Shown piece by piece: positions 4,591-53,800 of a DNA stretch of 59,081 nucleotides (its first letter is position 1; the number at the start of each line of letters is the position of its first letter). The stretch comes from a virus: the IMG/VR virus record IMGVR_UViG_3300027652_000001, positions 1 to 59,081 of that record; one strand, 5' to 3'. The notes under the pieces are model-generated. The model was not told where the DNA came from and did not search any database. It saw only the letters and a list, made by a program, of their open reading frames with translations. The translations under genes were made by a program, and so were the position numbers.

Positions 4591-4612
4591 GATGTTTCTC
4601 CTTCTTCGGGAT

Positions 4613-4641: not shown

Positions 4642-4647
4642 CCCCTC

Positions 4648-4962
4648 TCATTCGGTGCTCTCCTCTCCGCTGTTCCCCGCCGTGAACATTGCCACGATCT
4701 CCCGCTCGATCTGCTCGTCGGTGAACCCCATTGCTCGCAAGCGGGCGCGCAGCACGTCCGACTCCTCGCCTTCCATCTCCAGCAGCGCGTTCGCGTAACT
4801 TGACACTGCCTCGGGACCGAGCGGTTTTTCTGGACCGGAGGGCGCTGCGGGGATCTCCGTGAGGCGCAGGAGCGATTGCGCGATGGACTCCAGCGCGATC
4901 CGGCAATCGTGCAACTCGATGATCAACTCGCGATTGTCGGCGTGCAGTTCAAGGAGAGTCAT
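4648..4962 (-). CDS. Hypothetical acidic protein (104 aa)
   Basis: ORF with plausible composition. ATGA-type overlap with the upstream gene. Confidence 0.75.
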   Translation of the reverse strand: MTLLELHADNRELIIELHDCRIALESIAQSLLRLTEIPAAPSGPEKPLGPEAVSSYANALLEMEGEESDVLRARLRAMGFTDEQIEREIVAMFTAGNSGEESTE

Positions 4963-5621
4963 CGTTTTTTGTGGTGGCCGTGATCGGAACCTCCGCCTTG
5001 TAACACACTCTTGATGACCGAAACCCTCCCGGGAGCAATGGTCGGATCCCGCTTCTCGGTCGCCAAGTCAACCGCCTCATCGGTCTTGCTCTGCTGCCAG
5101 CGCTGGGCCTCCGCGCGCTCGGTTTCCTCTGTAGATTCGATGACCGCTCCTGGTGCCTTGCCATCCGCCCACGCTTGCGGTTCAGCGATCACCACGGCGG
5201 GCGGCTCCACAGCCGGTTCTGTTCGGCTCCCCGGCTTCGTACGAACGTCTACCAGCTCGCCGGTTGGGGTGCGCATCGTCTCCACGGTGCCTTGTTCGGC
5301 CAGTCGCCTAAGGTCCTGGGGATCCGCCTCGCGCCCGTACAAGGGTGAATTCTCGACCAACTCAACCGCTTGCTCCATCACTGGGCAGTACACCGCGCCG
5401 TCGATCTCGTACGTGATGTCCGGATCAGGTTTCGGTTCACCTGCGCCGGCCGCGTGGTAGGGCGTGAGCTTCACAGACACCTGATAGCGAATCAGCGGGA
5501 ACGCGCGTGCCATGTTTAGCGCATTGTCCTCCATCATGCAAGCGAGCACGCGCTGTGACATGATCTTTTTGATCTCGTTACCGTCCACGGCCCGGTATAC
5601 CTTCTTTGTTTCGAAACTCAA
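4959..5621 (-). CDS. Hypothetical protein (220 aa)
   Basis: ORF whose 4-nt overlaps chain it to both neighbours. Confidence 0.8.
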   Translation of the reverse strand: MSFETKKVYRAVDGNEIKKIMSQRVLACMMEDNALNMARAFPLIRYQVSVKLTPYHAAGAGEPKPDPDITYEIDGAVYCPVMEQAVELVENSPLYGREADPQDLRRLAEQGTVETMRTPTGELVDVRTKPGSRTEPAVEPPAVVIAEPQAWADGKAPGAVIESTEETERAEAQRWQQSKTDEAVDLATEKRDPTIAPGRVSVIKSVLQGGGSDHGHHKKR

Positions 5622-5863
5622 GTGTTACTCCTTGTTATTTCAAAGACCTTTCGATCCGATTCCATCGCGTCTGCACAGGCCAGCGCCTCTTTAATTTGAT
5701 CGTCGCTTGGAATGTTCTTGCCGTGTAGACAGCGAAGTCTGCACCATTCACGGATGGTCCCGGGAGCCGCTACATCGCGCGCCAGCAGAACAAAAGTCAT
5801 CTCCGTGGAATATGCGCGGTTAATGCAACTGTTGGGATTGCTCAATTCCTCTGCTTTCCTCAC
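5618..5863 (-). CDS. Hypothetical protein (81 aa)
   Basis: ORF, translationally coupled on both sides. Confidence 0.75.
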   Translation of the reverse strand: MRKAEELSNPNSCINRAYSTEMTFVLLARDVAAPGTIREWCRLRCLHGKNIPSDDQIKEALACADAMESDRKVFEITRSNT

Positions 5864-6579
5864 CGCTTTCTCCTCAAGTTCTCCGCGGCCTTGGCGCGCT
5901 CCTCCACAATTCCCGGCAGCGTTTCGCGTGCGTAGCGGGTCCAGTACTCGTTGTCAATTTCCTTCCAAAGTAGCCGCGCGTTGCCGCGCGCCAAACCGCG
6001 CACAGCCATCGTCACAGCCTTGACGACTTGCAGCAGGCCTTCCCAGCGGGTCAAACGAAGTGCGGGCAGGTGCTCAACGGGAATCGTGACCTCGTGGTAG
6101 CGGGACTTGCTCCAGCGCACTTTGATTGCGACCGTCACGAGCGGGAAATCCTTGCGCGGAGGTTGTTCGAAGAACCAAGCGCGGAACAGGCACATCCTCC
6201 GCTGCATGTCCGTCTTATCCGGGATGTACGTCGCGTGCAACTCGCCACGCTCTGCCATGTCCTCCAGTTGAGCCATGCGCCGACACAGCGCCGGACCCGG
6301 AGTGAACGCCCCCTTGCACAGTGACCCGAAGGCCGACATACCGATCCCGAGCAGCGCGACTACTCGCGATCGCGGCAACTTGACCTTTTCTTCCAGCCCC
6401 GCGATCCGCTCGGAAGGCCACTCCGCGACGATCTCGCGGAACTCGTTTGAGAACATTTTGGCCTTTTCGCTCGCTAACATCGGCACATCAACAATGCCTT
6501 TCCCCTTCAACTGGCGTCTGAGAACCCCTGGACGGGCTACGGTATAAGCCCAATCGCGCTTTGCAACCCGAAGATCCAC
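5860..6579 (-). CDS. Hypothetical protein (239 aa)
   Basis: ORF, coupled to the downstream gene. Confidence 0.8.
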   Translation of the reverse strand: MDLRVAKRDWAYTVARPGVLRRQLKGKGIVDVPMLASEKAKMFSNEFREIVAEWPSERIAGLEEKVKLPRSRVVALLGIGMSAFGSLCKGAFTPGPALCRRMAQLEDMAERGELHATYIPDKTDMQRRMCLFRAWFFEQPPRKDFPLVTVAIKVRWSKSRYHEVTIPVEHLPALRLTRWEGLLQVVKAVTMAVRGLARGNARLLWKEIDNEYWTRYARETLPGIVEERAKAAENLRRKR

Positions 6580-14905: not shown

Positions 14906-15175
14906 CTAATCCGTCATGAACCGGTAATAGCGGCGCCCTTGGGACAAGAAATCGCGTGCCGCACCAGTGACTTTCTCGTACAGATCGCGATCAGATTGAT
15001 CGGTTTCGCAGAGCACCACCAATGGCTGAGGAAGAGAAAATAAGGAACCATCGGGAGCTTCCCAGAGATTGCACACCTCGCCACGCAAGGCTCCAGACTT
15101 CCATTGAACGACCACGTACCCGATTTCTCGGATAGCTTTCTCTGCGCGTTCCATTGACTGCTGCTTGTAGTTCAT
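14906..15175 (-). CDS. Hypothetical protein (89 aa)
   Basis: ATG 15175 overlaps the recombinase stop (ATGA). Confidence 0.7.
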   Translation of the reverse strand: MNYKQQSMERAEKAIREIGYVVVQWKSGALRGEVCNLWEAPDGSLFSLPQPLVVLCETDQSDRDLYEKVTGAARDFLSQGRRYYRFMTD

Positions 15176-15840
15176 CGCTCTTTCGCCAGCTCCCTCTTCA
15201 CAATTCTGCTCACGGTGGCGCCGAACCACCGCCCGCTATCCCGCGTCGACACCCGCGCCTCGTTCAGCCGACCCGCGATCTCGTTAAACGTCCCGCCGTC
15301 CCCGTGCCACTGCATAATCAACGCCAAAACCTCCGGCTCGTGCGGGAAATCCGGATGCGACCCGAACACCTTGCGCCCCTCGCACTTTCCGGTTTTCTTC
15401 CGAATGCGATCGCGAGCCGCTCGTAACTTACACACAATCATGGTTTTATCGAACTGCGCGATCGCTCCCATGATCTGTCGAAACAAGATCCGCGTCGGAT
15501 CCTCACTCCCCAAATCCGGCTCCGCGGTCGAAACGAGCGTGACTCCACGCTTCTGCAGCTCGCGCACAATCCACTCCTGCACCCCCAGATCTCGAGCCAG
15601 GCGATCCAAACGCTCCACGATAATCATCCGCACGCCATCGAGTGCCCCGACCATCTCTACCCAAGCCGGCCGGTTATCCCACTCGGTCTTCCCGCTCACC
15701 CCTTGCTCCTCGAACCACCGCACGATCTTTATCCCGTTCACCGCCGCGTAGGCCTCGATCGCCGTGTGCTGCCGGGGAAACGAGTCGCCCTCGATCTGCG
15801 CCCGGCCCGAGCAGCGACAATACGCGAAGGCGCGCGTCAT
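15172..15840 (-). CDS. Small serine recombinase (resolvase / invertase type, 222 aa) with a C-terminal HTH
   Basis: AFAYCRCSGRAQ catalytic-Ser motif, VERLDRLARDL, and the C-terminal HTH GGTFNEIAGRLNEARVSTRDSGRWFGATVSRIVKR. ATG 15840 is chosen because the ORF-track start at 16098 overlaps upstream genes. Confidence 0.85.
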   Translation of the reverse strand: MTRAFAYCRCSGRAQIEGDSFPRQHTAIEAYAAVNGIKIVRWFEEQGVSGKTEWDNRPAWVEMVGALDGVRMIIVERLDRLARDLGVQEWIVRELQKRGVTLVSTAEPDLGSEDPTRILFRQIMGAIAQFDKTMIVCKLRAARDRIRKKTGKCEGRKVFGSHPDFPHEPEVLALIMQWHGDGGTFNEIAGRLNEARVSTRDSGRWFGATVSRIVKRELAKER

Positions 15841-15974
15841 TTGCAGCTCCCCACGACGACCCCAGTTACGAATCCGGCGAGAGCAACGAAAAACATCAGC
15901 CAAAAGCCTTGCGCTACCGTTGCGCGTGGATTGATGATTTCTTTGAGCGGTCGCCACCAGAAGGAGCGCGTCAT
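15837..15974 (-). CDS. Small membrane protein (45 aa)
   Basis: MTRSFWWRPLKEIINPRATVAQGFWLMFFVALAGFVTGVVVGSCK. ATGA overlaps at both ends. Confidence 0.5.
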   Translation of the reverse strand: MTRSFWWRPLKEIINPRATVAQGFWLMFFVALAGFVTGVVVGSCK

Positions 15975-16258
15975 GCGGCCCCCAATTCTGCCAGAGCCTT
16001 ACGCGCAGTAGCGACCGCGCAATCTCCCTCGTGTTCGTCCCCAGTATGGGCGTAACACATCCAGCCGGGATGATCGGCGATGTACGACAGCGCAGCACGC
16101 GCTATCTCCAACGATTTGGACCTCTCGAAGCTTTTTACTGCCTCCATCTGCACGCGAATGGAGAACGGCGTCTCGGCACCTTCGTATAAACTCTGAGCCC
16201 GGCCACCCAGCCAAGTGGCAAGGTGCCCTTTGCATGTCACGTAATCCCGCTCAGTCAT
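15971..16258 (-). CDS. Hypothetical protein (95 aa)
   Basis: ORF lying second in the early operon. Confidence 0.75.
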   Translation of the reverse strand: MTERDYVTCKGHLATWLGGRAQSLYEGAETPFSIRVQMEAVKSFERSKSLEIARAALSYIADHPGWMCYAHTGDEHEGDCAVATARKALAELGAA

Positions 16259-19170: not shown

Positions 19171-20832
19171 ATGAAGAGATGGCTCATCTTTTTGTTCTGG
19201 CTGTGCGCTGGCCCCGCGTTCGCGCAGACACTCCGCATCTCGGGCTGGTGCGAGCAGGGTGCCCAGCAGATCAACGTCGGCGGGGTGCTGTCTTCGCCCA
19301 CGACGCTGGTCCAGGCGAGCTACCCGGCGTGTAGGGTGACCGTGTTCCAGGCGGGAACCATCACCAAAGAAACTATCTACGCCGACAACATGATGACGCC
19401 ACTGGCGAACCCTTTCACCCTCACGCCGGGGAATGGTTACTGGTTCTTCTACCCGGCCATGGACACCGATCACGTCGACATCACGTTTGACCAGGGGGGA
19501 ATTCCCACCCCCTACACGCTGGGGGACGTGGCGGCGGCCGGCGGGTCGGGCGGAGGTGGCGGTGGAGGACCAGGAACTGTAACACGCGTAACATTTCCCA
19601 CAATTCCCGCTTGGCTGACCGCTTCCGTGGCGACAAACACCACGACGCCGGCAATTTCGATTGTTGTGGCGACCGGGCAGGCCTCGAACCAGGTCATCGG
19701 AACGTGCGGGTCGGCCACCACTTTCGGACCGTGCTCGCTGGGCGCCACGGATCTACCAGGCACGATCGTCTACAACAATCAGGCCAACACGTACTCGACG
19801 GGTGGCCAGAACTTCGCCGCGGCCAGCTTCCTGACGATCCCGAGCGGGCCAGGGTATGCTCCTACCAACAGCGGCATGATCGGCTACGACACGACCGCGA
19901 ACGCCTACCGGCTGGGGATCGCAGGGACGGATTTCATCATCGCGCCGCTCCTGAACGGCGCTTTCACGGTCGGCCACTGCCTCGAATATTCGACCACCCC
20001 GGCGCCCTCGATAATCGATGCTGGATTTCCGTGCAGCATGGGAGGCGGCGGAGGCGGAAGTCCGCTGACGGTCCAGGTGGGCGGGACTTCGACAGGGACG
20101 GCCAGCGCCACGCTCAACTTCAATTCGGGGAGCGGCATCAACCAGACGTGCTCGTACAACGCGGGCGCCTCGCGAAACGATTGCACGCCCGCCCTGGACA
20201 CCGCCTACGCCTTGTCGCGCGCCACAGACCAAAATGGAACGGATGCGACCTGTATCGACGCGTCAGGGAGCGGGACTTCGTACACCTGCTCGGTCACGCC
20301 CGGGCTCACCGGGTACACGCGCAACATGCGGATATATTTTGTTCCGCAGACGACGAGCGGAGCGGCGCCCACGCTGAACGTGACGGGAATCGGACCGCTG
20401 CCCCTCCAGTGGAATATCAACGGGACACTGACAAACGTGGCGGCTGGTCAACTCGTCGCCGCGCTGCCCTACATGCTCACCGCCTGGGGAAGTCCTCCGA
20501 CCGCGCTCGTGGTGCAGCCGACCGCCTACGCACCGAACACCGTGCAATCTTGTGGGACGACTATCGCCTGCTCGCACACTATTCTGAGCGTCCCGCAGAT
20601 CGTGACCGGTAGTGTGGCTCTGTCGAGCGGCACCCCGAGCACGGCGGCCATCACCGGGCTGTCTCCGGGGTTCACGTCGGCATCCACCTACCACTGCACG
20701 GTGAGCGATGCGACGACAGCGGCGAATGAGGTGACGGTTCTCGCGGCGGGGTACGTTTCAGGGACGGCGTTCACGATCACCGGGCCGAGCACCGTTACGG
20801 ACGTAGTGCACTATATTTGCGTGGGCAACTGA
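19171..20832 (+). CDS. Secreted tail-fibre-like protein (553 aa) with a Sec signal peptide and poly-Gly linkers
   Basis: MKRWLIFLFWLCAGPAFA|QT. TATAAT (19159-19164) lies 6 nt upstream of the ATG. A central domain (LSRATDQNGTD ... TLNVTGIGPLPL ... GSPPTALVVQ) is shared with 31244-31939. Confidence 0.75.
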   Translation: MKRWLIFLFWLCAGPAFAQTLRISGWCEQGAQQINVGGVLSSPTTLVQASYPACRVTVFQAGTITKETIYADNMMTPLANPFTLTPGNGYWFFYPAMDTDHVDITFDQGGIPTPYTLGDVAAAGGSGGGGGGGPGTVTRVTFPTIPAWLTASVATNTTTPAISIVVATGQASNQVIGTCGSATTFGPCSLGATDLPGTIVYNNQANTYSTGGQNFAAASFLTIPSGPGYAPTNSGMIGYDTTANAYRLGIAGTDFIIAPLLNGAFTVGHCLEYSTTPAPSIIDAGFPCSMGGGGGGSPLTVQVGGTSTGTASATLNFNSGSGINQTCSYNAGASRNDCTPALDTAYALSRATDQNGTDATCIDASGSGTSYTCSVTPGLTGYTRNMRIYFVPQTTSGAAPTLNVTGIGPLPLQWNINGTLTNVAAGQLVAALPYMLTAWGSPPTALVVQPTAYAPNTVQSCGTTIACSHTILSVPQIVTGSVALSSGTPSTAAITGLSPGFTSASTYHCTVSDATTAANEVTVLAAGYVSGTAFTITGPSTVTDVVHYICVGN

Positions 20833-23740: not shown

Positions 23741-24213
23741 TCAGAACTTTCTTAACATTCACACTCTTGGGCGCGCTGCTGTTTCAGGTTGGATGCAGCC
23801 AGAGCCAAGTCACAACCACGCTCGACCTGGTGGTGACCGCTGCCGACGCCGCAGTGAGCGTTCTTCAGAGTACCGGCACACTTCCACCAGGGACCGCATC
23901 CCTAATCACCGGCTACCTCGGCCAAGTGACCACCGGCGTGGAATTCGCTACGACCGAATTGGCGTCAACGGACTCAACCGCAGTCAAAGCGGCCAAGATC
24001 ACGCAGGAGTTCGCGATGATCGTTGTCCCGAATCTTCCGCCGGGGACCGGGGCCGCGATAGTGTCGGTGGTAGCTTCCGTAGCTCAGGCCGTGGCCAACT
24101 TCCTCTCCACGCTTCAAACCGTGGCCATGACTTCGGCAGACAAGCAAGTCCTTCCCAAAATCGCCCGGCACAACGCGATGGTCCGCGCCAAGCTGATTAT
24201 CGTCCACAAGTAA
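23737..24213 (+). CDS. Secreted helical protein, possible lipoprotein (158 aa)
   Basis: MIRTFLTFTLLGALLFQVGC|SQSQ is a signal peptide with an imperfect lipobox (Gln at position -3). Confidence 0.6.
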   Translation: MIRTFLTFTLLGALLFQVGCSQSQVTTTLDLVVTAADAAVSVLQSTGTLPPGTASLITGYLGQVTTGVEFATTELASTDSTAVKAAKITQEFAMIVVPNLPPGTGAAIVSVVASVAQAVANFLSTLQTVAMTSADKQVLPKIARHNAMVRAKLIIVHK

Positions 24214-24222
24214 CGTAGCGCG

Positions 24223-24228
24223 TATAAT
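24223..24228 (+). promoter_or_regulatory. TATAAT box 11 nt upstream of the giant gene ATG, in the same GCGTATAAT context as at 19156-19164
   Basis: gcgtataatgggtcttcagtATG. No SD is present. Confidence 0.35.
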
Positions 24229-24239
24229 GGGTCTTCAGT

Positions 24240-27200
24240 ATGAAGGCCCATTTGCTGCTTCTGGCGTTGCTCGCGATACCAGCGATTGCTGGTACCTATA
24301 CCGCCGCGACGTGCAATTACGCGGATGTAAACGCGGTAGTAAACGGGCCTACCCACGTCGCTGTCGCAGGCGACATAATCCAAATTCCCGCAGGTACCTG
24401 CACGTGGACGAACGGCATCGTAGTCACGGTTGGTATCACGATCAGCGGTAATGGCACTCCCAACAACACGCCCGGTACATTCGGCGCTGGTACGACCAAT
24501 ACCGTCCTTATCGACAACTACCCGGGTGGCGCAGTTATCAGTCTGCAAGGGATTCCGTTCGGGCAGACAAGCAGGATTTCGACTCTGGACATCGAGCCAC
24601 AGTCCGCTACGACAGCGCTAGTGTCGCCTCTCCAAGCAGCTGGTACCTGTACAAGTAGTGGATGTCCGAATCTGCGTATTGACAACATTGTTTTTGGCCT
24701 GACGACGCAGTGGACAGAGGCGGGGAACGGCGCACCTGCGGATTGGATGATACGCACCGACAATATCGTCGGCGTGATCGATCACACGAGTCTTCCGCCT
24801 GGCAGCAATGTTGCGTTGTTAAACGGCAACCTGTCCGCGTACTTAGGCGTAGGCGGATTCGGCGACAATTCTTGGGCGCAACCGGATTCGTTTGGCGGCG
24901 CAAACGTGATGTATGTCGAAAATAGCATAGTGAACGGAGGTGGCTTTAGCGACTGCGACAATAATCCAGCAGGCGGTGCGATTGGTGGCTGCCGAATCGC
25001 CGTCCGGTTCAATCAGTCCAGCGCCTCCAGTTCGAACGGGTTCGTTTACGTCCACGGACTTGATACGGATGGAAGGCCGCAAGGCGGCAGGCAGATTGAG
25101 GTTTATGGCAACACGCTTAACTGCACTAGCGGATCCTTTGGCGGTTGCCAAGCCATAACAGTGTACCGCTCGGGTACTGGATTCACCTTTGCCAACACAG
25201 CGGCTGTCTCTGGTGGAGGGTTCTACAATCAGATCGCTTCGATCTTAGTGTTCCGCACAGTATTTAACAATAGTTCGTTCGGGTCTTGCGGCGGGTCGAG
25301 CGCTTGGGATACGAATGATGGGACGGTTTACTACTCTGGTACTACCTCGACCAATGGCCAAACGCTCACAGATACGTCGAAGTCTTGGACTACAAACCAA
25401 TTCATTCCGAACGGCGCGCCATTCTCTGTCTACGACGTAACTCAGGGATGGTGGGCCGAAATCGCAAGTAATACCGGAAATACGCTTACCATCAACGGCA
25501 GTATTCCGGAGCAAAGCAATAGTTTTAACAGCGGCGATAGTTACCAGATCTTGCGAGCGACAGTGTGCGCAGATCAAGGGGGGCGCGGCCAAGGCAACTA
25601 TATTTCAGGTGGAACACCTACTCCAGCCAGCGCTTTGTCCCAAGCGCTCGATCCAATTTACGAATGGAATAATACTGTCGGCACGTTGTTTCATGGCAAC
25701 GTCGGCACCGACACTGGTCGCACGATTGCTAATCGTGACTGGTATACAGACGGGTCAAACGGCAGTCCGCAGGCAAACACGTCGCCGACGTCACCGTTCA
25801 ACGGCACATCAGGCGTAGGGTTCGGGACACTTGCGAATCGTCCAACTACATGCACGGTTGGCGTGGGGTATTTCGCGACAGATCAAGGCAACTGGAATCA
25901 ATCATCGAATGGATTCGGGCAGGGGCAGCTGTCGACTTGCGTCTCCACAAACACATGGGCGATTCACTACACACCCTACACGTACCCGCATCCATTGATC
26001 TCCGGCGGCGGCTCGCTACTACCACCGAGCTTTTCTCCGCCTGGGGCCTCTTATGGTCCTGCGCAGACCGTCACGATCTCGCTACCCTCCGGATCGACCG
26101 GATGCTTCACCGTCGATGGGAGTACTCCTACCGCCACCACGGCCGGCACTTGCTCTCATGGCACGACCTATTCCACTCCGATCACTGTGTCCACGAGTCT
26201 TACGGTGAAGGCCCTGGCGACGAAAGTAGGATTCACCAATTCGGCCGTTGCCAATGCGGTCTACGTCATCAACGGAGCGCTCGCAGCCCCGACGATCTCG
26301 CCGGCTACCGGAACGTACGCGGGTCCCCAAACCGTCACAATCAGCGGGCCGGCGGGGTCGACTGTCTGGTACAACTTCACCGGGACGTTCACCGGATGCA
26401 CGGCGAGCAGTTGCCCCACAGCGACGATGTACAGTTCTCCGGTGACTGTCGCAACATCGGAAACAATTCATGCTCTCGCAACCGAGGCTGGCTGGTCCAA
26501 TTCCGCGGTGGCGACCGCAGCGTACACGATCAATGGCGCTCTGCCCGCACCCACGTTCACGCCATCCGCTGGATCTTACGGGCCAACCCAGACCATCACC
26601 ATAAACCTGCCGGCCGGGGCGGCAGGATGCTATACGACGGACGGGAGCACGCCGGCGGCAGCTACCCCGGGCACCTGTTCACATGGGACGACCGTCTCAG
26701 GGACCGTCAGCGTCTCGTCCACACTCACCCTGAAGGCGATTTCAACCGAGGCAACGTTCCTCAATAGTTCGGTATCGAGCGCGCTGTACACGATCAACGG
26801 AGCGTTATCCACCCCGACCTTCTCGCCAAACGGAGGGTCGTTCGCGCTTCCTCAGACTGTCTCGATCACCTGTCCCGCAGGCGCGACGTGCTGGTACAAC
26901 TTTACGGGTACGTTCACCAGTTGCACGCCAACAGTCTGTACTGGGGCCACTATGTATTCGGCGCCGGTCGCGGTGTCCACGACGTCGACGCTTTTCTCTA
27001 TCGCCACGGAAGCAGGCTGGAGCAATTCCACAGTTGGAAGCGCCGCCTTCACGATCAACGGGACGCTGAGCGCTCCAACATTCTCCCCACCGGGCGCGGT
27101 CTATTCCAGCACGCAAACAGTGACCGTGAATTTGCCGATGGGATCGACAGGGTGCTACACCAGCGATGGAACTGCGCCGACCGCTACCACTCCAGGAACG

Positions 27201-30200
27201 TGTTCGAACGGAACAACCGTGTCTGGAACGGTCAGCGTTCCGGCCACGGTTACGCTCAAAGCGCTTGCTACGGAGGCTGCGTTCGCTAACTCGTCCGTAG
27301 CCAGCGCAACCTATACGATCATCAGTCCGAGCCCCTGTACGATCTCGAGCCCCACGGCCTCACAGTTGATTCAGGCTGCGGCGCCCCTGCAGTTGAATTC
27401 GTCGTGCTCCACGGCACCCACTGCGACCAAGGCGATTTACTTCGTGGATTACCAGCGGGTCGCTACGGGATATTCGAATCCATCCCTCGGCTCGACCATC
27501 AACGATTTCAGCACGGCCTGGTGCGGTCCGTTCTGCGCGACCTGGTGGCCGGGGCTCAATGGGGACGGATCGCACACGGTCTTCGCCCAGTTTTACCAGT
27601 TCGACACGCTACTCGCTACCACGCCCACCGTGAGTTTCACCGTCCGGCTCGAAGGGATGTCGAACCAGACGGTCAATGCGCTGCCGACTTCGGGCACCGG
27701 CGAATTCGGAGTCCTCTCCAACGGCCCGGGCGCGCACTTTATGCTCGACGGCCTAGACGGGTCGAATTCCAATTACTTCGGCGATCCGCTTTATCACTTC
27801 TGCGGGCTCGATGGCGGCACCGGGCAGGCGGGAGGCTGGAAGATCCCGGCGCTCAAAACCTCCTGCTGGCCGAACGGACAACACCTGATCGTGGCGGGAA
27901 CTTATCCGACCACCGGCGCGGCTGATCCATACGTGGTCACGCAGACGTTCACCAGCGCGAATGTGAGCGGCAACAACATCACGGTCACCAATCACTCGTT
28001 TCAGAACGGCAACGCAGCGGTCTGCTTAGGCGCATGCCCCGCGCCGATTGTGGCTGGTGCGCAGTTCTTCTGGACGACAAGCCCGACATGGGCGGCCGGC
28101 ACAGTCGCGGTCTCGATTGCCGGCGGTGTCGGGACGTTCACATGCTCATCTGCATGCGGCGTCACATCCGGCACAACAGTCAACATCGAGAACATCCAAT
28201 CGACGAACCAAGTGACCGGGCAACCGAACTGCGACGGGCAATACACAGCGGCATCAGGGTCGGGTACCTCGTTCACCGTGAACCTGCCCGCGGTTTGCAA
28301 CGGAGCATCCGGAGCCAAGAACCTGGAAGTAGACATTAACCCGATCTGGATCCAGTACGTGGACGGTAACACTGTGTCATTCTCCGCGACACCGGGCGGC
28401 TCGACCATACCGCTCACCAATACCGGCTCGGGCACCATGACGATCCAGTCGCGCACGCGGTCGCCTTACTACACAGTAGGCGGATTTGTGCCGGGGCAAA
28501 CCATGGGCGCGGATTACGTGCAGTACGGCGGCCCTGCGAATATTTATCAGCTAGTCACGTTCTCCAACGGCGCTGCGCCGATGCAGTTGATGCCTAAGTT
28601 CGGTGAGATGCATCTAGTAGCTGGAGCGAGTCCGACCGCGCTTTGTAATGCGGCAACGCTGATCGAGAATACGGATTTGACCTTTAGTGCGACCGCCTGC
28701 AACGCTTCGGGGCTTACCTGGACCGAAGTGGACGACGGTGGCGTGTCTGGCGTTTGCTCGGTGGATGCGTCAGGTAACGTGACGCCGATCATGGCCGGAT
28801 GGTGCAAGGTAAATGTAGCCTGCACAGCGTGCGCGGTGGGGGGTGTAACGCTTCCCACCGTGACCGTCTTTGTCCAAGTTCATGCGGGTTCTGTTACCTT
28901 CCCGCACTACACCCGATCCGGCGTGCTCGCGAACGCGTTCATGCCAGGGCAATCCTTCTATCCGATCAGCGCGTATCAGTTCAATCCCGCGCAAGCGCCG
29001 TCGTGGCTGGGACCTGCACTTATGCGGTCAAATGTGAACTCGCTGCCGATTGGGTTCACGTACCAAACCAATCTTACCAACCCGACCGCGACCAGCTGCC
29101 CGACGTGGCCGGATTCGACCATGAGCACCTGGGCGACATTCGCGCAGACCTGGAACCTGACGCTCGAATACGACATGTACCCGGTCTGGTTCCAGCAGGG
29201 ATCGAACGCCACATCGCTTGCAGCGATATTAAACAACACTGGGTATAATCGGCGTGCGTGTCTTGCAACGCTGGTATCGTATCTGATCGGTCTTGGGCGT
29301 GTCTGGAGGATCTATCCCGATGACGAAGTCTCAAATATTATCGGGAACTATCTTGAGCCTAATCCGCTGATCGGCCAAGGCAACTTCATCAGCGCGACAA
29401 CAGCAGGCGGCGTGGCCACGTTCAATGTGGCGAACATCACGTCGCTGGCCGCATTCAATCAAGCGACCGGGCAGGGAAATGCAATTCAAATCACAGGAGC
29501 GACAACAAATTCATGCCTGAACGGATGGTTTTTACTGACAACTGTGTCGTCTTCTACATTGACGGCACCGGCAGGCTCGTGTGGGAATGGTTTAACAATC
29601 AACGCGACGAGCGATCCCAGTGCATCCATGAACCTCCCCTTCCCCGGACTAGCCACCTCGGGGACGACGCTGCTGCAGAACGCCGGACCGCTCCCGGCGA
29701 ACCTAGGCCAGACGGAACAGACCTGGGACAGTAACCTGACGAGCATCGTGGTGTCAGGCTCGACCGGCACGATCCACTGGACCGGCCATGCTGTCACATC
29801 CGGAACCGCGATCCGGCTCTATTGCTTCGCTTGCGCACACACCAACCTGAACTTCATCGGCGTCCCAGTGGTCACGGATGCGAACACGCTCACGATCACC
29901 TGGACGGGAACAACTGGGGGGACGCCGCCCGCGGCTGGCACTTACAATAACTCAACTGACCCATCTGGTTTCTACCTGACGGTCGATCCCAATTGGGGCG
30001 CAAATCCGTTAGGGCAGTTTTACGCGCTGGTTAACGCGGTGCCGAATCATCCACTGAAAGCGTTCTCGATGCTCGGGACGCTGTTCTTCACGCCATCGAC
30101 GGTTTACAGCTACCAAGGCAACCCGGTGAACACGGACTCCTCGTGGCTCTACGTGCCCCAAGGACCGCCCAACTACACCGGCGCGGATATCTCGGTCAAC

Positions 30201-31157
30201 CAGGTCGCAAATTACAGTCAGTCCACTTCCGGGATCGCATCCCGCGCCTACCAGCTTGCCCCACGCTCGATGCTGTTCTACGGCGGCTACATCGGCGGCG
30301 GCAACATGGTCCAGTATCAGCGCTCGTTTTATTTCGACCCTTCAACAGACCGACCGGCGCAGAACGGGCTCAACTGGCGCCCGGAAACCACGCTCACTCA
30401 GATGATGTCGATGAAGACGATTGGAGTGCGTGGGCTCAGGCTCTACAACGGGTATCAGAACACATCCTCTGGCTACACTCAGCTTGGCCTCGGCTGGAAC
30501 GCGCCAGGCAACGGCGGATTCGGAACCGGCGCGGGCATGAGCCCCTACACGGCGCCTAAGACATGGGCCGCAATGGCACATACGAATGCGTTACTCGTGA
30601 TGCGCGAGGATACGGAATTGCAGCCGGAAGACAACAAACCGTACTTGGGGCCGTACTTCCAGACCGACGCGCACTTGAGCGCGACTTACGGCAATGAACG
30701 TACAGTTGTATGTGCATCTGAAATGCCGTATGGCGCAATTACGTTTCCGCTCAACCCGATTTCCGGCGGCTCGACGCTACTCTACACAAGCGATGGGTAT
30801 TCGACCCGCGTCTCAACCGTCGCAGGCAACCCGTCGTCGATTACGCAGGAATTCTGCCCGTCGCCCGGTTACACGTGGGTCTACGTCAGCCAGCCGCCCG
30901 GATACACTGCGCTCGATCAGGTCACATTTACACCGCCGAGCCCGTTGCCATTCAGTGCAGTCCACATGCTGATCCAGGTCGGATATTACCCGGACGGGAT
31001 GCAGGATGACCCGGTGTTCGACGCGACATCCGGCGTGACCGTGCCCATTGACCATCACAATATCAACGCCTGGTACCGGACGCTGTACTGTGATTCAAAC
31101 TTCCAACCATTGAGCATCAGCGACCCGACTTTAATTCCTTCACAGAATCTGCCGTGA
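24240..31157 (+). CDS. Giant secreted protein (2305 aa). Sec signal peptide, then a Gly/Asn/Thr-rich N-terminal region (possible beta-helix), five tandem CHB_HEX_C-like Ig-type repeats and a ~1280-aa C-terminal region. Candidate polysaccharide depolymerase or adhesin.
   Basis: MKAHLLLLALLAIPAIAG|TY. Single uninterrupted ORF. Repeats are read in the translation (see 26022-27323). Confidence 0.85.
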   Translation: MKAHLLLLALLAIPAIAGTYTAATCNYADVNAVVNGPTHVAVAGDIIQIPAGTCTWTNGIVVTVGITISGNGTPNNTPGTFGAGTTNTVLIDNYPGGAVISLQGIPFGQTSRISTLDIEPQSATTALVSPLQAAGTCTSSGCPNLRIDNIVFGLTTQWTEAGNGAPADWMIRTDNIVGVIDHTSLPPGSNVALLNGNLSAYLGVGGFGDNSWAQPDSFGGANVMYVENSIVNGGGFSDCDNNPAGGAIGGCRIAVRFNQSSASSSNGFVYVHGLDTDGRPQGGRQIEVYGNTLNCTSGSFGGCQAITVYRSGTGFTFANTAAVSGGGFYNQIASILVFRTVFNNSSFGSCGGSSAWDTNDGTVYYSGTTSTNGQTLTDTSKSWTTNQFIPNGAPFSVYDVTQGWWAEIASNTGNTLTINGSIPEQSNSFNSGDSYQILRATVCADQGGRGQGNYISGGTPTPASALSQALDPIYEWNNTVGTLFHGNVGTDTGRTIANRDWYTDGSNGSPQANTSPTSPFNGTSGVGFGTLANRPTTCTVGVGYFATDQGNWNQSSNGFGQGQLSTCVSTNTWAIHYTPYTYPHPLISGGGSLLPPSFSPPGASYGPAQTVTISLPSGSTGCFTVDGSTPTATTAGTCSHGTTYSTPITVSTSLTVKALATKVGFTNSAVANAVYVINGALAAPTISPATGTYAGPQTVTISGPAGSTVWYNFTGTFTGCTASSCPTATMYSSPVTVATSETIHALATEAGWSNSAVATAAYTINGALPAPTFTPSAGSYGPTQTITINLPAGAAGCYTTDGSTPAAATPGTCSHGTTVSGTVSVSSTLTLKAISTEATFLNSSVSSALYTINGALSTPTFSPNGGSFALPQTVSITCPAGATCWYNFTGTFTSCTPTVCTGATMYSAPVAVSTTSTLFSIATEAGWSNSTVGSAAFTINGTLSAPTFSPPGAVYSSTQTVTVNLPMGSTGCYTSDGTAPTATTPGTCSNGTTVSGTVSVPATVTLKALATEAAFANSSVASATYTIISPSPCTISSPTASQLIQAAAPLQLNSSCSTAPTATKAIYFVDYQRVATGYSNPSLGSTINDFSTAWCGPFCATWWPGLNGDGSHTVFAQFYQFDTLLATTPTVSFTVRLEGMSNQTVNALPTSGTGEFGVLSNGPGAHFMLDGLDGSNSNYFGDPLYHFCGLDGGTGQAGGWKIPALKTSCWPNGQHLIVAGTYPTTGAADPYVVTQTFTSANVSGNNITVTNHSFQNGNAAVCLGACPAPIVAGAQFFWTTSPTWAAGTVAVSIAGGVGTFTCSSACGVTSGTTVNIENIQSTNQVTGQPNCDGQYTAASGSGTSFTVNLPAVCNGASGAKNLEVDINPIWIQYVDGNTVSFSATPGGSTIPLTNTGSGTMTIQSRTRSPYYTVGGFVPGQTMGADYVQYGGPANIYQLVTFSNGAAPMQLMPKFGEMHLVAGASPTALCNAATLIENTDLTFSATACNASGLTWTEVDDGGVSGVCSVDASGNVTPIMAGWCKVNVACTACAVGGVTLPTVTVFVQVHAGSVTFPHYTRSGVLANAFMPGQSFYPISAYQFNPAQAPSWLGPALMRSNVNSLPIGFTYQTNLTNPTATSCPTWPDSTMSTWATFAQTWNLTLEYDMYPVWFQQGSNATSLAAILNNTGYNRRACLATLVSYLIGLGRVWRIYPDDEVSNIIGNYLEPNPLIGQGNFISATTAGGVATFNVANITSLAAFNQATGQGNAIQITGATTNSCLNGWFLLTTVSSSTLTAPAGSCGNGLTINATSDPSASMNLPFPGLATSGTTLLQNAGPLPANLGQTEQTWDSNLTSIVVSGSTGTIHWTGHAVTSGTAIRLYCFACAHTNLNFIGVPVVTDANTLTITWTGTTGGTPPAAGTYNNSTDPSGFYLTVDPNWGANPLGQFYALVNAVPNHPLKAFSMLGTLFFTPSTVYSYQGNPVNTDSSWLYVPQGPPNYTGADISVNQVANYSQSTSGIASRAYQLAPRSMLFYGGYIGGGNMVQYQRSFYFDPSTDRPAQNGLNWRPETTLTQMMSMKTIGVRGLRLYNGYQNTSSGYTQLGLGWNAPGNGGFGTGAGMSPYTAPKTWAAMAHTNALLVMREDTELQPEDNKPYLGPYFQTDAHLSATYGNERTVVCASEMPYGAITFPLNPISGGSTLLYTSDGYSTRVSTVAGNPSSITQEFCPSPGYTWVYVSQPPGYTALDQVTFTPPSPLPFSAVHMLIQVGYYPDGMQDDPVFDATSGVTVPIDHHNINAWYRTLYCDSNFQPLSISDPTLIPSQNLP
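26022..27323 (+). repeat. Five tandem ~87-aa coding repeats of two alternating subtypes (A-B-A-B-A)
   Basis: Type A contains GC[FY]T.DG[ST].P.A.T.GTCS.GTT. Type B contains WYNFTGTFT.CT...C..ATMYS.PV.V. Every unit ends in A.Y.ING or TII. Confidence 0.85.
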
Positions 31158-34640: not shown

Positions 34641-34919
34641 ATGGCAACGCTTTATGGCAACATCGGAAGCATGGATTTCAATCGAGCAACCGAAGTCAGC
34701 CCCGACGTTGACAAGACCGTCGAAGACCTTTTCACTTACCACCCTTGGAGCGCCGAGCAGACGCAGAAAGGCGTGGCCGTCCGTGATGCCCTTGCAAAGG
34801 CAGTGCGAGTGATCATCGAGAACGTGCCTCCGTGTCCTGACCGCACCGTGGCAATCCGCAAACTGCGCGAAGCGCGGATGGATGCGAACTCAGCTATCAC
34901 CCACAGCGGCAAATACTAA
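34641..34919 (+). CDS. Small phage protein, candidate Acb2-like cyclic-oligonucleotide sponge (92 aa; alternative TTG start at 34635)
   Basis: Motif FTYHPW-x11-VRDA ... VPPCPDRTVAIRKLREARMDANSAI. The Tyr and the basic residue 15 positions later resemble the family pattern as remembered. This is inference only. Confidence 0.4.
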   Translation: MATLYGNIGSMDFNRATEVSPDVDKTVEDLFTYHPWSAEQTQKGVAVRDALAKAVRVIIENVPPCPDRTVAIRKLREARMDANSAITHSGKY

Positions 34920-34924
34920 CCTGG

Positions 34925-35254
34925 ATGGAAGAACTCCGCAAACGACTGCGCGAGATGACCGACAAGTTCGTGGATGACATTGTGGCGCTCACGATCCAGG
35001 AAGGCCACAAGATGGCGATCGCTCGGATGCGTGAGGCGCGCCACAAGGCGCGCATGAACAAGGGAAAAATCCCGTACGGAGAGTACCCGCACGAGAAGGA
35101 CGGGCTCGAAATGATGATCCGCATGCGGCGAGAGGGCCATCCGTTTAGGACAATTGGAGAGGCGATGGAGCGACACGGATTCCCGACGCGCGCTGGAATG
35201 GTTTGGAACCCCGGCACGATCATCCGTATCCTGAAAAAATACGGAGTCAAATGA
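34925..35254 (+). CDS. HTH DNA-binding protein (109 aa), possible small-terminase-associated
   Basis: EGHPFRTIGEAMERHGFPTRAGMVWNPGTIIRILKKYG is a recombinase-type HTH pattern. Lies upstream of the terminase. Confidence 0.45.
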   Translation: MEELRKRLREMTDKFVDDIVALTIQEGHKMAIARMREARHKARMNKGKIPYGEYPHEKDGLEMMIRMRREGHPFRTIGEAMERHGFPTRAGMVWNPGTIIRILKKYGVK

Positions 35255-43883: not shown

Positions 43884-44378
43884 ATGGTTAACCGTCCTGA
43901 ACCTTCAGAGATCGATTACGCAAGGCTCGCCGCTTATATTGACGGCGAGGGCAGTGTCGGCATTCAGCGAAACAAGAAGTCTTGGTTTGCTCAGTTGACC
44001 ATCGTCAACACTGACCCGAGAATCGTGCTGTGGCTATACGAAACGTTCGGTGGATTCATCGGAAAGCGCGGTTGGAACAACCGCAGAAATCCCAAGTGGC
44101 GTAAGACCTTGGTATGGTATCTCACGTGTGAAAAGCTTCACTCCGCTCTGCTGAAGTGTCGCCCTTATCTCCTGGCAAAGGGAGAACAGGTCGATATCGT
44201 CGTTGCGTTCCGAGCGACCGTTAAACGCGTGGGAGTGAAGGGTCACAGCGCCGAAGTAGTGCAGTCCCGCAACGACATGATGGGCAGGCTGAAGGTCCTG
44301 CGACACCGAGAATATTCCAAAGAGGAGTTCGACGAGATAGCGGACAATTCCAAATCTCCTCGCGAAAAGGCAGGTTGA
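43884..44378 (+). CDS. LAGLIDADG-family homing endonuclease (single-motif type), free-standing between the scaffold and capsid genes
   Basis: LAAYIDGEGSVGI motif and WLYETFGGFIG. Starts at the nucleotide immediately after the scaffold stop. Confidence 0.6.
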   Translation: MVNRPEPSEIDYARLAAYIDGEGSVGIQRNKKSWFAQLTIVNTDPRIVLWLYETFGGFIGKRGWNNRRNPKWRKTLVWYLTCEKLHSALLKCRPYLLAKGEQVDIVVAFRATVKRVGVKGHSAEVVQSRNDMMGRLKVLRHREYSKEEFDEIADNSKSPREKAG

Positions 44379-48947: not shown

Positions 48948-48960
48948 CTAGTCCATACTT

Positions 48961-49113
48961 ATGCCAGCCTCGCGCGTGATGCACGAGTACAAGCACGGCA
49001 CGCTGCGAAGTGGGTCAAAGCGCGGTCCAAAGGTAAAGAAAAGATCCCAGGCGGTCGCGATCATGATGAGCGCGCGGCGCAAGGAAGGTAAGCGAAAGAG
49101 GGCGCAGAAGTAA
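48961..49113 (+). CDS. DUF6496-like small basic protein (50 aa)
   Basis: VMHEYKHGTLRSGSKRGPKVKKRSQAVAIMMSARRKEG matches the remembered MHEFK.G.L.SG...V..RKQAIAIA pattern. Confidence 0.5.
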   Translation: MPASRVMHEYKHGTLRSGSKRGPKVKKRSQAVAIMMSARRKEGKRKRAQK

Positions 49114-49271
49114 TGGATTTGTTGGTCGAAATCATCAGGCAGGACGAGGAGTTCAGGCTCGAATGGGAGGCCGCCCACATCGCTCAGATAAATGAGCAGT
49201 GGCCTCACTTGGACGCTCTCAACCGTACTACCTTCAAATGGATGTACGGTGATAAGGTCGGCAACCAGTAG
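49113..49271 (+). CDS. Small hypothetical protein (52 aa)
   Basis: TAATG coupling to the upstream ORF. Confidence 0.45.
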   Translation: MDLLVEIIRQDEEFRLEWEAAHIAQINEQWPHLDALNRTTFKWMYGDKVGNQ

Positions 49272-49280
49272 AATGGATCA

Positions 49281-50627
49281 ATGCCCGGGCCGCCTGCCGT
49301 CACTGTCAGCATCTCTAGCCTGACAACACTGCTTGCCCAGCGCCTCGGTGCCAACCTCGCCGGCCAGGACTTCTGGGTCACTGCCGAACTTGACCTCTAC
49401 GTCAGGCAGGCGATCCGCGAGTTTCAGGTGCTCACCGACTACTGGCGGAACAAGATCACGCTGCCCGCCGCGGCGAACACCCCTTTTTACGACCTGCACG
49501 CACTCGGTGCCATCCCCTACACGGTCAACGACACGGACATCCTGGCGCAGGTCGGTTACCACTTGCTGGAGTACGACGGCACCCAGCCGAACTTCATAAA
49601 CACCCTCCAGTTCACGCAGGGAGCCGCTACAGCAGCGTTTGACCAGCGCCGGGAGGAAATGCTCGGGGAGACGCGCCTCGTCGTCACCCAGTACGCTGGG
49701 AACGCTCCGGGCCCTACTCCGCCGGCCAGCCGAATTGTGCTTTCGTCGGGCGTGATCCAGATCCACCGAGCCGAGTGGTTCGACGCGATAAGTTCCGCGT
49801 GGAACCTGCTGAACCGAACGGATGAACTGGGGGCGTACGGATGGTCCTACCAGTGGGCTGGCACGCCCGCGACCGATCCCCAGGCGTATAGCGTGGCTGT
49901 CACCCGTCCGTTCCAAGTCCAGTTGATCCCTCCTCCGAGCAATCCGGGACAGGTCGGGCTTTTGATAACTGCCTGCAATCCATACACTTTCACCGGTACT
50001 CCGCAACTTATCAACATCCCGGACGATTCTGCGTACGCCCTGCCGTGGGGGATTCTCGCCAGCATGCTCAACCAGGACGCCCAGTCGCGAGACTATCGGC
50101 GCGCGATGTACGCCCAGAAGCGATTCCGAGATGCCTTGACCGTGCTGAAGTCGTGGCCCTGCGTCATGAACGCGTACCCGGCTGGCATCCAGTACCTCCC
50201 GAGCACGCTGTTCGCGCTAGACCACTGGCAGGCCGGCTGGCGCAACGTGACTCCCGGTCAACCCAACGTTGTGGCCGTGGCAGGCCGGAACCTCGTGGTG
50301 CTCTCGCCGGCCCCAAGCGCAGCGAGCAATATTCCGCTCGATTGCGTCGTCAACTCCCCGGCGAGCGTGGCATCCCGGACGGCGACGTTCGATCTGGCCG
50401 GGGATATCGTCACGGCGATCCTCGATAACGGACAGCACCTAGCCTGCCTGAAACTCCAGGGCGAAGAGTTCGAGGCTACCGTCCCGCTGTACAACGAGTT
50501 CTTGACCGTGGCCGAAGAGTACGCGGATCGGGAACGTTCCCAGTCGATCAACTGGAACGCGTTGCGCGGCGTGGTGGAAGAGGAAAAAGCGGAAGTCCCG
50601 TACGAAAGCGAGCCGGTTGAAGCGTGA
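49281..50627 (+). CDS. Virion or tail structural protein (448 aa)
   Basis: Long ORF in the tail module. No motif recognised. Confidence 0.8.
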   Translation: MPGPPAVTVSISSLTTLLAQRLGANLAGQDFWVTAELDLYVRQAIREFQVLTDYWRNKITLPAAANTPFYDLHALGAIPYTVNDTDILAQVGYHLLEYDGTQPNFINTLQFTQGAATAAFDQRREEMLGETRLVVTQYAGNAPGPTPPASRIVLSSGVIQIHRAEWFDAISSAWNLLNRTDELGAYGWSYQWAGTPATDPQAYSVAVTRPFQVQLIPPPSNPGQVGLLITACNPYTFTGTPQLINIPDDSAYALPWGILASMLNQDAQSRDYRRAMYAQKRFRDALTVLKSWPCVMNAYPAGIQYLPSTLFALDHWQAGWRNVTPGQPNVVAVAGRNLVVLSPAPSAASNIPLDCVVNSPASVASRTATFDLAGDIVTAILDNGQHLACLKLQGEEFEATVPLYNEFLTVAEEYADRERSQSINWNALRGVVEEEKAEVPYESEPVEA

Positions 50628-50660
50628 CCTGTGTTATCCTGTCTTTTCGATATCCCACAC

Positions 50661-50844
50661 GCGAAGGGGTACCGTAGGCCCAGTGATGTAAGGGAAGCGC
50701 GGAAGACGGGCATAGCGAGTAGTCAACCATTCGGTTGTGAGTGCATGGGTTGGCGAACAAAAGGCTGGCAGTTGCAATAGCTGATTGGAATAAGCTCAGG
50801 TGAACTCACCGACCGCGTTGAACCTGCTGGGAGCGGTACCCCGC
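50661..50844 (+). ncRNA. Unclassified highly structured intergenic element closed by a long-range helix
   Basis: ggggtaccg (50666-74) pairs with cggtacccc (50834-42). The helix is extended by cccag/ctggg (50679-83 / 50826-30). Internal hairpins are caacc-attc-ggttg and gtgagt...actcac. No ORF is present. Confidence 0.45.
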
Positions 50845-50865
50845 TTAGTTTAGTATGGTACTCGG

Positions 50866-53800
50866 GTGCCAAACTACAATAAGCAAAAACAGCGCCTGGC
50901 ATTCAAGGGCGTGAATCTCAACGCGGCAGTAGACGCGATCCCTCCCGATCAACTCGGCATCGCGACCAACGTGCGCCCGACCCAACAGGGAACCCTCGGC
51001 ACGCGACCCGCAATCGCGCCATTCATCACGCCAGTCGGAGCAGTCAATCCGATTCACAGCATAAAGACATTCTCGGCGTCTGGCGTCACGCGACGATTCA
51101 CTGGAGCGGTTGCCAATTTGTGGATGGACACCGCGCTTGTGGACACCGGCTACAGCGGCAATCCCCTGAGCTTCGCGGCCTACCAGCCGTCGCAAGCCGT
51201 CCAGCCGTTCCTCTACGTGGCTGACAGCGCGCGCTATCGGAAGTTTCGCGCATCGGACGGGGCAAAGTTCAACGTGGGGATAGTGCCGCCGCCCGGCCCA
51301 CCGGACGCGAATCTAATTCAGCCGCTCTACACATCTGTAAACGAGTTTGACAGCGCTCCTGGCTGGGGCGCGGGTGGCACGGCGGGCGCTCCCACGGCAG
51401 TCGATCGCGTTCCTGCGGGCACGACGGTTGCGGCGATTCTGTACGACGTGGGGTCCACCGGCTGGGCGTGCGTGGCCTTCGAGACCCCGTCGACGACTTG
51501 GCTGACGAAGGGCGCAAGCATTTACATTGAAAACGAACTGTCGAAGGTCTCCGACATGATTGCGCAGAGTTCGGATTCAACTACGACGATTGCGGCGATC
51601 CAATACGACACCGGGGCCAGCGGAGCGTGTTGTTTCACGCTCGCCAGTTCCACCGAGAACCTTTCGCGCGATACCTTCCTCCAGCTAGGCTCCGAGAACG
51701 TTCGGATCTTGTCGGTAGCAATCGGCGAGGACAACACGGTGAGCCTTCGATGCGTCACGGTCGGAACGCACGCGGCTGGCGAGGGCGTGACATTTTACAA
51801 CTGCGCGCGCATGTATCTGACGGTGAACCACTCGGTCGGCGCCGCCGTGCTCGGAAATTGTCTCACGTCTACCGTCACGGTCGGGCTGGGAACGCTGACC
51901 CTCCCGCTCGGCATGGTGCGCGATCTCTCGCAGATCAACGGGCGCCCGCTCACAACAGATGATTGGATGCACATCAGTTTGCTGTTCGACAACCTCGACA
52001 ACCTTTCGGACGTGCGCATTCTGCTCGACGTCGACAACACGACAAACGACTTCACCCATAATTTTTACTACGCAGACATCACGGCGAACGTTCTGCAGCA
52101 GGCATCGAGCGGCGCGGCGGCGGTCGTGACTGCCGGATCCACCGCTTTGCAGGCTACAGGCACCCAGGCGCAGCTGCAGGCGCTCTACGCGCAAGCAGAA
52201 GAGTACGCGGCGGCGGGAAACTACGTGGAAGCCGCTGCCCTCCAGAACACCATCTCGCAGTTGAATGCGCAGATTAACGCGCAGCTCGTCACTGGCGCAT
52301 CGCAGTGGTCGGAGATTTTCGTCCCGCTCTCGGCGCTGACTCGAGTCGGCAACGATCAGACGGTTGGGCTTTACAACGTCAAGGCGATTCAGATTCAGAT
52401 TGTCTGCACCGATACCATCAACATCTCGATCGACTCGTGGTGGTGTGGCGGGACCTATGGGCCGAACGCGCCGCAAGCCATCAATCCCGAGAATCCGATC
52501 AAGTACTGCTACCGCTATCGCTCTACGATCACCGGCGCGCAGAGCACGTGGAGCCCACTAACACGCGGGGGAATCTTCGCCGAGCGGCAGGGCATCGGAA
52601 TCACCGGGGCGGCATACAGCACTGACCCGCAAGTGGACACGATCGATTTCGCGCGGGTTGGCGCTAGCATCAATGGGACCCCTCAGTATTTGGCAAGCGT
52701 GGCGAACAACACGGCGGGCGGGTTTGCTACCTACGTGGACAATTTCCAAGATGCGGAGTTGGGCGACCAGATCATCCCAGGCGACAACCAGCCTTGGCCG
52801 GTCCAGCAACCCCCGATCATCGGAACGTGTTCCGTGGTAGGCACCACGGTTTTTGCGACGTCGGTGACAATCCCCACGAATCTCTGCCAAGGAACCAACG
52901 TTCTCATTAACGGCCAGGAGACCGTGATCCGCGGCTTGCCGGGCACCAACACGTTTCAGGTCGAGGACAATATCGACACAGCGAACGGCGTGAGCCTCCA
53001 GATTTGGAGCCCGACGACGTTCGGCAACCCACTCCCGTTTGAGGCTGGTCCGTTTGACGAATCTATCTTCGCGGCCGGCGACCCGGTGAATCCAGGCCGG
53101 GTCTATTTCGCCAACCGAACGAATCCGGACACCGCGGCGACATCCAACTTCGTGGATCTCACGAGCAGCGCCGAACCGATCTTAGGAATCTGCGTTTGGA
53201 ACGGGTACGTTGTCGCGATGACTGCCGAACAGTTCTTCATCGGAACCACGAGCGGCCAAGTCGGCAACCCCTACGCGTTTACCACGACCGGCGTCGGCTG
53301 CGGATTGCTTGCGCCGTGGGCCTTCACGACTGGACCGGGCATATTCTTCTGGACGCGCAATGGGATCGCCGTTACGGAACTCGGCCCCGCAACTCCGATC
53401 AGTTCCGCCGATCTCTATCCATACCTGCCGCACGAGGGCATTCCCGGACAAGCGGTGAACGGCTACCTCCCGCCGATGCTCAACGTCATGCCGCGGCTGG
53501 GCTACTGCAAAAACGGCTGGCTCTATTTCGACTTCGAGGATTCGGGCGGCAACCAGAAGACGCTCGCATTCGACACGACCAAGCCGGGATGGTGGTTTGA
53601 CTGCTACACGCCTGCCGTCATGCTGCACTACCAGGACGAAGCGGAGAACAGCAGCCTGGTGCTGTGCGGTTGCGCGGATGGCACCCTTGAGCAATTCTCG
53701 ACGGCGTCGGCCGACACCGGGGGGCCGATCACTTGCCAGGCGCGACTCGGTTCGCAGAACTACGGCGATCTGCGGTCACTCAAGCAGGTAATCGATCTTG

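Follow-up and report, generated by a model that had tools for sequence, protein, structure and literature searches.

The early and late mRNAs of bacteriophage T7 contain intercistronic hairpins that are processed by RNase III. We describe here an element between two tail genes of an uncultured phage that resembles the T7 sites in its arrangement, being noncoding, situated between two genes of the same orientation and predicted to form a sense-strand stem-loop, and also in its predicted structure, an imperfect double-stranded RNA with internal loops that is long enough for RNase III. It departs from the T7 sites in size and number. Those sites are shorter and occur several times per genome with features in common, whereas the element described here is ~177 nt long, single-copy and without a motif in common with other gaps.

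Other described systems offer partial likenesses. As with morons, the insertion lies exactly between two conserved genes that are direct neighbours in relatives, the cargo at this junction differs from lineage to lineage, and the GC content is below that of the flanks. However, a classical moron consists of an ORF together with a promoter and a terminator of its own, whereas this element has no credible ORF or promoter and only a weak terminator-like hairpin; we did not assign it to this class, as it has the position of a moron but neither the ORF nor the promoter. MITEs and the REP/PATE palindromic elements are likewise short and noncoding, with an inverted repeat that encloses the greater part of their length. 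In the present case, however, the repeats lie away from the ends, no target-site duplication is seen, and no other copies were found.

Location and coding content of the gap

The window, by which we mean the whole stretch of DNA that was analysed (59,081 nt), is by its appearance the almost entire ~59-kb genome of an uncultured tailed phage, and encodes portal- and major-head-like proteins. A serine recombinase with Resolvase and Recombinase domains is encoded on the minus strand (15172–16098), which suggests a temperate phage, and the source phage is probably temperate. Outside the main structural block, a 2305-aa protein (24240–31157) has several repeats of chitobiase/hexosaminidase C-terminal and Fn3-associated domains, and may serve as a fibre or surface-binding protein of very large size.

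The gene upstream of the element is adaptor-like (49281–50627, with its TGA stop at 50625–50627); its 448-aa product matches PF24175, the SU10 adaptor family, with E = 1.4e-11. The next gene, on the same strand, starts with GTG at 50866 and encodes 1161 aa. The name “nozzle” for this downstream gene is based on position only, and sequence searches of the PDB with the adaptor and the 1161-aa protein gave no match. Between the adaptor TGA and the GTG of the 1161-aa gene is a noncoding insertion of 238 nt on the plus strand (50628–50865), just as the first-pass annotation had reported. That annotation had contrasted the gap with a genome in which most genes overlap by 1–4 nt. This part of the description was too narrow, since gene spacing in the tail module ranges from an overlap of a few bases up to ~30 nt, but the 238-nt gap is still the largest within the surrounding 13 kb. 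The second-largest uncalled gap in the tail-proximal block (48948–49112; 165 nt) immediately precedes a 52-aa ORF and the adaptor gene, and a plus-strand structure predicted close to it (49142–49339) has a shuffle z-score of −2.9.

The gap had also been described as having no ORF. Short ORFs do occur in it, such as one of 49 aa at 50631–50780, but none is a credible gene. A search of 1.84 billion representative proteins gave no homolog of the 49-aa ORF, which also has no Pfam match, and three ORFs on the opposite strand of the gap have no family match. The GC3 of the 49-aa ORF is 0.56, which is like noncoding DNA, as compared with 0.75–0.78 in the flanking genes, and the source pipeline called no gene in the gap. 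Overall GC content is 52–55% in the element versus 58–68% in the flanks. We conclude that the gap is noncoding. It is also true, as had been remarked, that no Shine-Dalgarno sequence precedes the downstream GTG; however, many genes of the window are without one, so this is unremarkable.

The junction in related phages

A search with the adaptor protein yielded 31 relatives at 49–72% identity, whose loci were fetched from metagenome and viral collections and by exact look-up. The element (50628–50865) is missing at the same junction in every related phage fetched, so that it does not belong to the conserved tail module. In the two closest relatives, L024 (72% adaptor identity) and P0003 (71%), there is a 4-nt overlap between the adaptor gene and its downstream neighbour. 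Most other lineages have these two genes −4 to +3 nt apart, and the downstream gene of the relatives has an ATG or GTG start that overlaps the adaptor stop codon. The downstream protein begins with M-N-Y-N-K-Q-K in L024 and with (M)-P-N-Y-N-K-Q-K in the window, where a new GTG-CCA (50866–50871, plus strand) stands before the old second codon of the gene and precedes the conserved N-Y-N-K-Q-K N-terminus. This comparison indicates that both window genes are complete and that the extra DNA lies exactly between them. Moreover, both flanks are ~70–72% identical to L024, so the gap is not a module-swap junction. Together, the loci show that the stop and start codons at this junction ancestrally overlapped by 1–4 nt, and that the insertion kept both reading frames intact while bringing in a new GTG start.

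Four other lineages have insertions at the adaptor/next-gene junction, and these are mutually unrelated. In L004 and L018 the insertion is 123 nt of noncoding DNA (6318–6440 in L004); in L027 it is a 91-aa gene of family PF20137 (BubE; 4332–4607); in L007 and L023 it is a 502-aa gene (6382–7890 in L007); and in L037 it consists of a 95-aa and a 415-aa gene (3826–4113 and 4110–5357). On this comparison, the junction has repeatedly served as a site for unrelated insertions in this phage family. By parsimony, the element is a derived, lineage-specific orphan insertion at this hot spot.

Other differences among these loci were seen along the way. The 502-aa protein of L007/L023 and the 415-aa protein of L037 have a signal-like N-terminus in common (LLLLLLANPMFARA-I/V-YSNWCQ) and look homologous. 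Within the downstream gene itself, ~340 nt in L001 (2451–2794) and L016 (7348–7691), both with 66% adaptor identity, cover only ~22 residues of the window's 1161-aa protein, which indicates an insertion of ~90 aa in the L001/L016 version of the gene.

Candidate origins of the element within this set of sequences were tried and rejected. As decayed cargo of relatives, the element gave only chance matches in tblastn and blastn comparisons with the 91-aa gene of L027, the 95-aa and 415-aa genes of L037, the 502-aa gene of L007 and the L004 gap. As a flank duplication, it looks similar by eye to the adaptor 3′ end, but local alignments with 400 nt on each side, on both strands, were no better than those of shuffled sequences. 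An assembly artefact can be excluded, since several independent assemblies have the same element sequence. L025, the one further copy retrieved, does not differ from the window at any of its 13,347 bases, and variants in the cluster differ only in how the start codon is translated. Some microdiversity does exist, as the adaptor variant P0001 has two amino-acid differences. Because all assemblies with the element are identical, they carry no evolutionary information and give no covariation signal.

Searches for more distant copies covered a wider range of sequences. Against the window, short-word blastn and nhmmer returned only the element itself and chance matches of 11–17 nt; with no near-copy in the window by either method, we rejected the template repeat of a diversity-generating retroelement. 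Distant blastn of the phage collection returned only 23–38-nt matches with E of ~1–10, the plasmid collection held no match, and an 18-mer scan of GTDB genomes gave four matches, each of only 18–21 nt. A single-sequence covariance model (R1), run over the window and the fetched loci (200 kb), detected nothing besides the element, and comparison of the element with 17 other noncoding gaps of the window revealed no common motif at p ≤ 0.05. Three pattern scans of viral contigs found no related copy; their single match, L036 (IMGVR_UViG_3300006851_000366), is unrelated. At 750–1020, L036 has dense GGGGTACC(G) repeats in both orientations, adjoining a 634-aa ORF on the opposite strand, and this array looks like iterons or a protein-binding array, such as that of a replication origin.

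Predicted structure of the insertion

The first-pass annotation had proposed a domain closed by a long-range helix, and the complementary segments of this helix are indeed present, with GGGGTACCG at 50666–50674 and CGGTACCCC at 50834–50842 (I3 in the inverted-repeat list), followed on the inner side by CCCAG at 50679–50683 and CTGGG at 50827–50831. In the predicted plus-strand RNA, the 5′ arm of the closing helix, GGGGUACCGU (50666–50675), pairs with the 3′ arm, GCGGUACCCC (50833–50842), and across a 3x1 internal loop the second segment, CCCAGU (50679–50684), pairs with GCUGGG (50826–50831). Among dinucleotide shuffles, 6% contain a perfect 9-bp inverted repeat, as do 9% of genomic 238-nt windows. 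A helix of two segments (9+5) occurs in 0.55% of 2000 shuffles and in 1% of genomic 238-nt windows, and the genomic windows that reach this level correspond to five places in the window, this element included. Given these frequencies, we conclude that the two-segment closing helix is uncommon but not unique. Perfect helices in two segments, with 14 bp or more inside 238 nt, are also found at 5821–6118, 19201–19558, 34861–35158 and 44041–44338.

The predicted stability depends on the stretch that is folded. The full gap has a minimum free energy (MFE) of −82.1 kcal/mol, which corresponds to z = −1.04, with 26 of 200 shuffles as stable. Its MFE fold is without the closing helix, and the fold with the helix (−80.6 kcal/mol) is 1.5 kcal/mol worse. 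The predicted probability of the closing helix varies with the context: 0.02 in the 238-nt context, 0.99 for the core alone or with 100-nt flanks on each side, and 0.84 with 200 nt. The core (50660–50848) has an energy of −76.1 kcal/mol on the sense strand, with one of 200 shuffles as good (z = −3.54, a score that is inflated because the core window was picked after the helix was seen); on the antisense strand, z is −0.76.

The core is predicted to form a rod without branches, with 60 pairs (35 G-C, 13 A-U and 12 G-U), that spans 50666–50843, or ~177 nt, and ends 23 nt upstream of the GTG. Its first two helices, of 10 bp and 6 bp with the 3x1 internal loop between them, are followed by further helices. 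The third pairs AGCGCGG (50696–50702) with CCGCGUU (50813–50819), both on the plus strand. Beyond it is a central hairpin (50717–50797, plus strand; apex loop 50755–50763), which by these predictions is the most robust part because it is present in both competing folds. The rod and its closing helix compete with an alternative plus-strand 5′ hairpin (50633–50716) that includes CCUGUCUUU/GAAGACGGG. A different interior, made up of three small helices, had been proposed in the first-pass annotation. The motifs named there are present (CAACC-attc-GGTTG at 50724–50737, GTGAGT at 50737–50742, ACTCAC at 50804–50809, and AGCT at 50779 and 50793), but GGTTG and GTGAGT have the G at 50737 in common, so the two helices cannot both be complete. 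Moreover, this model reaches −34.7 kcal/mol versus −76.1 kcal/mol for the unbranched rod, and so describes the interior poorly. Origin of the arms as a decayed perfect DNA palindrome was also ruled out, since global alignment of the two arms of the rod gave 50 Watson-Crick columns out of 96, with 19 transversions.

As a genome-wide control, Lfold local structures were computed and the 95 top candidates in the window were compared with dinucleotide shuffles. The exact closed structure has a shuffle z of −5.19, the lowest of the 95; structures inside coding sequence have values of −5.16, −5.04 and −4.88. Among the Lfold local structures with a length of 120 nt or more, both strands included, the rod ranks 104 of 6749 by a composition-regressed measure. 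Being in the top tier and specific to one strand, the predicted core fold is suggestive, but it is not an outlier. Energies below those of shuffled controls, the comparison proposed in the first-pass annotation, are seen for the sense strand of the core and for the exact closed structure, but not for the gap as a whole, in which the closing helix also has a low probability. Elsewhere in the window, a region over the start of the 2305-aa gene (24163–24349; gene start at 24240) is at the top of the composition-regressed ranking, with shuffle z-scores of −4.66 and −4.00 on the two strands and no inverted repeat of at least 10 nt found there, and 34908–35121 has a shuffle z of about −5 on both strands.

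Toward the 3′ end of the element is a weak terminator-like hairpin, GAGCGG-UACC-CCGCUU followed by AGUUUAGUAU (50831–50856, plus strand), in which the hairpin proper (50831–50846) has a 6-bp stem with four G-C pairs. Because this hairpin takes up the 3′ arm of the closing helix, it and that helix are mutually exclusive. Its U-tract is weak, and three terminator-like sites were seen in 3 kb compared with 2.5 expected by chance. Attenuators and riboswitch platforms are similar to the element in having two exclusive folds, here those of −82.1 and −80.6 kcal/mol, and in that one fold has a terminator-like hairpin, here built from the 3′ arm of the closing helix. They are unlike it in that we found no known aptamer and no conservation, the U-tract is weak, and terminator-like sites in this region are at chance frequency. 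A scan of 49000–52000 on either strand, confined to sigma-70-type promoters (−35 and −10 hexamers with a spacing of 16–18 nt), gave no site.

The element had been suggested as a possible structured noncoding RNA or ribozyme. Rfam 15 at gathering scores has no match in the whole window. At E ≤ 10, the only Rfam match in 50300–51200, ribozymes included, is a chance one to mir-449 on the minus strand (15 bits versus a gathering score of 60.4). With ARAGORN, neither a tRNA nor a tmRNA was detected. We conclude that the element belongs to no described RNA family, and a known noncoding RNA or ribozyme class can be set aside.

Interpretation of the insertion

Our leading explanation, which we hold tentatively, is that the insertion gave rise to a hairpin within a late mRNA that uncouples or processes two cistrons. 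Since the flanking genes are co-oriented and no promoter was found, the element most likely lies inside a late polycistronic mRNA and would be transcribed as part of it. The core (50666–50843) would then form a sense-specific, imperfect, rod-like hairpin of ~177 nt, and the ancestral translational coupling of the adaptor and the next gene would be lost. As intercistronic double-stranded RNA, the rod could be an RNase III-type substrate or a barrier to mRNA decay, and the two tail proteins would thereby be made in different amounts. The predicted rod has what RNase III demands of a substrate in structural terms, namely double-stranded RNA that is near-continuous for around two turns and lies between cistrons on the strand that is transcribed. 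The competing 5′ hairpin (50633–50716) and the weak terminator-like 3′ hairpin might additionally allow some conformational switching, for which there is no specific support. Against the leading explanation are the presence of the element in one phage only, with no conservation to reveal selection for the fold, the z-score of the whole gap (−1.04), the low probability of the closing helix in the 238-nt context, the composition-regressed rank of the rod, the z-scores of about −5 within coding sequence, the equally long helices at four other places, and the choice of the core window after the helix was seen.

Almost as likely as a functional hairpin is a neutral scar: the gap would be the leftover of a moron-like insertion or of illegitimate recombination, without a selected function, and its hairpin would be accidental or a relic, for example of a former terminator stem. 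The junction is demonstrably a hot spot at which unrelated cargo enters, the element is an orphan confined to one lineage, the stability of the full gap is not significant, and comparable helices and z-scores arise by chance inside coding sequence; the drop in GC content to 52–55% from the 58–68% of the flanks also fits foreign or decaying DNA. A scar is harder to reconcile with a core fold that is strand-specific and has the lowest z of the 95 local structures tested, and the element showed no similarity to the junction cargo of relatives, to its flanks or to any protein. In addition, compact phage genomes tend to shed useless DNA. It is unlikely that the element is instead an independent, trans-acting structured RNA gene of an undescribed kind, such as an anti-defence decoy or a regulatory RNA, inserted as cargo. 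Such a gene would be at home at a cargo site, and a closed, strand-specific domain of ~177 nt with a low z-score and a hairpin with a U-rich tail at its 3′ end would suit it, but we found no promoter-like site, no Rfam match, and no second copy or homolog in the window, in the relatives, in the phage, plasmid and viral collections or, by seed search, in GTDB. Moreover, the predicted rod is plain, without the multi-helix junctions typical of complex RNAs. We likewise give little weight to the broader idea of a self-contained, undescribed structured RNA as hot-spot cargo, acting either in trans as an anti-defence or regulatory RNA or in cis as a switch for the ratio of tail proteins. Relatives of such a cargo RNA would then occur in unsampled phages, or have diverged too far for exact-seed searches.

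A role at the level of DNA has a still smaller chance of being correct. In that case, the two GGGGTACCG arms, both of which include the palindrome GGTACC, would serve as inverted protein sites or the terminal repeats of a miniature transposon. The arms are the only exact copies of this 9-mer in the window, their centres are 168 bp apart, and the iteron-like GGGGTACC array of L036 indicates that the motif can be a protein site elsewhere. However, copies with one mismatch are at chance level (12 versus 12.1 expected), no motif is in common with other intergenic regions, and the strand asymmetry of the fold points to RNA. We rejected a MITE in particular, because the arms (with outer ends at 50666 and 50842) are 38 and 23 nt inside the insertion (50628–50865) rather than at its ends, there is no target-site duplication beyond a GTG common to both junctions, and the element is single-copy. 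Least probable of all, and hardly to be expected, is a small protein encoded by the 49-aa ORF (50631–50780). This ORF exists and, with its GTG start 3 nt past the adaptor stop, is well placed for translational coupling, but it has no Shine-Dalgarno sequence, and its lack of homologs, Pfam match and gene call, together with its low GC3, speaks against translation.

Whichever of a hairpin or a scar it may be, the element is best classed as an orphan, either an intercistronic hairpin or the remnant of an insertion, at a hot spot for cargo, and not as a new RNA class. As a candidate for such a class it is weak, because there is one sequence, without homologs in which covariation might show. This phage, if the hairpin is functional, would have exchanged the tight translational coupling of two of its tail genes for an RNA-structured spacer, and would offer a natural experiment on how the ratio of tail proteins is set. 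Better founded is the finding that the junction itself is a recurrent landing site for unrelated cargo in this uncultured phage family. The kinds of cargo seen there are two noncoding DNAs, a PF20137 gene and secreted-looking proteins, and the adaptor/next-gene junction would be a useful place to seek accessory or anti-defence functions.
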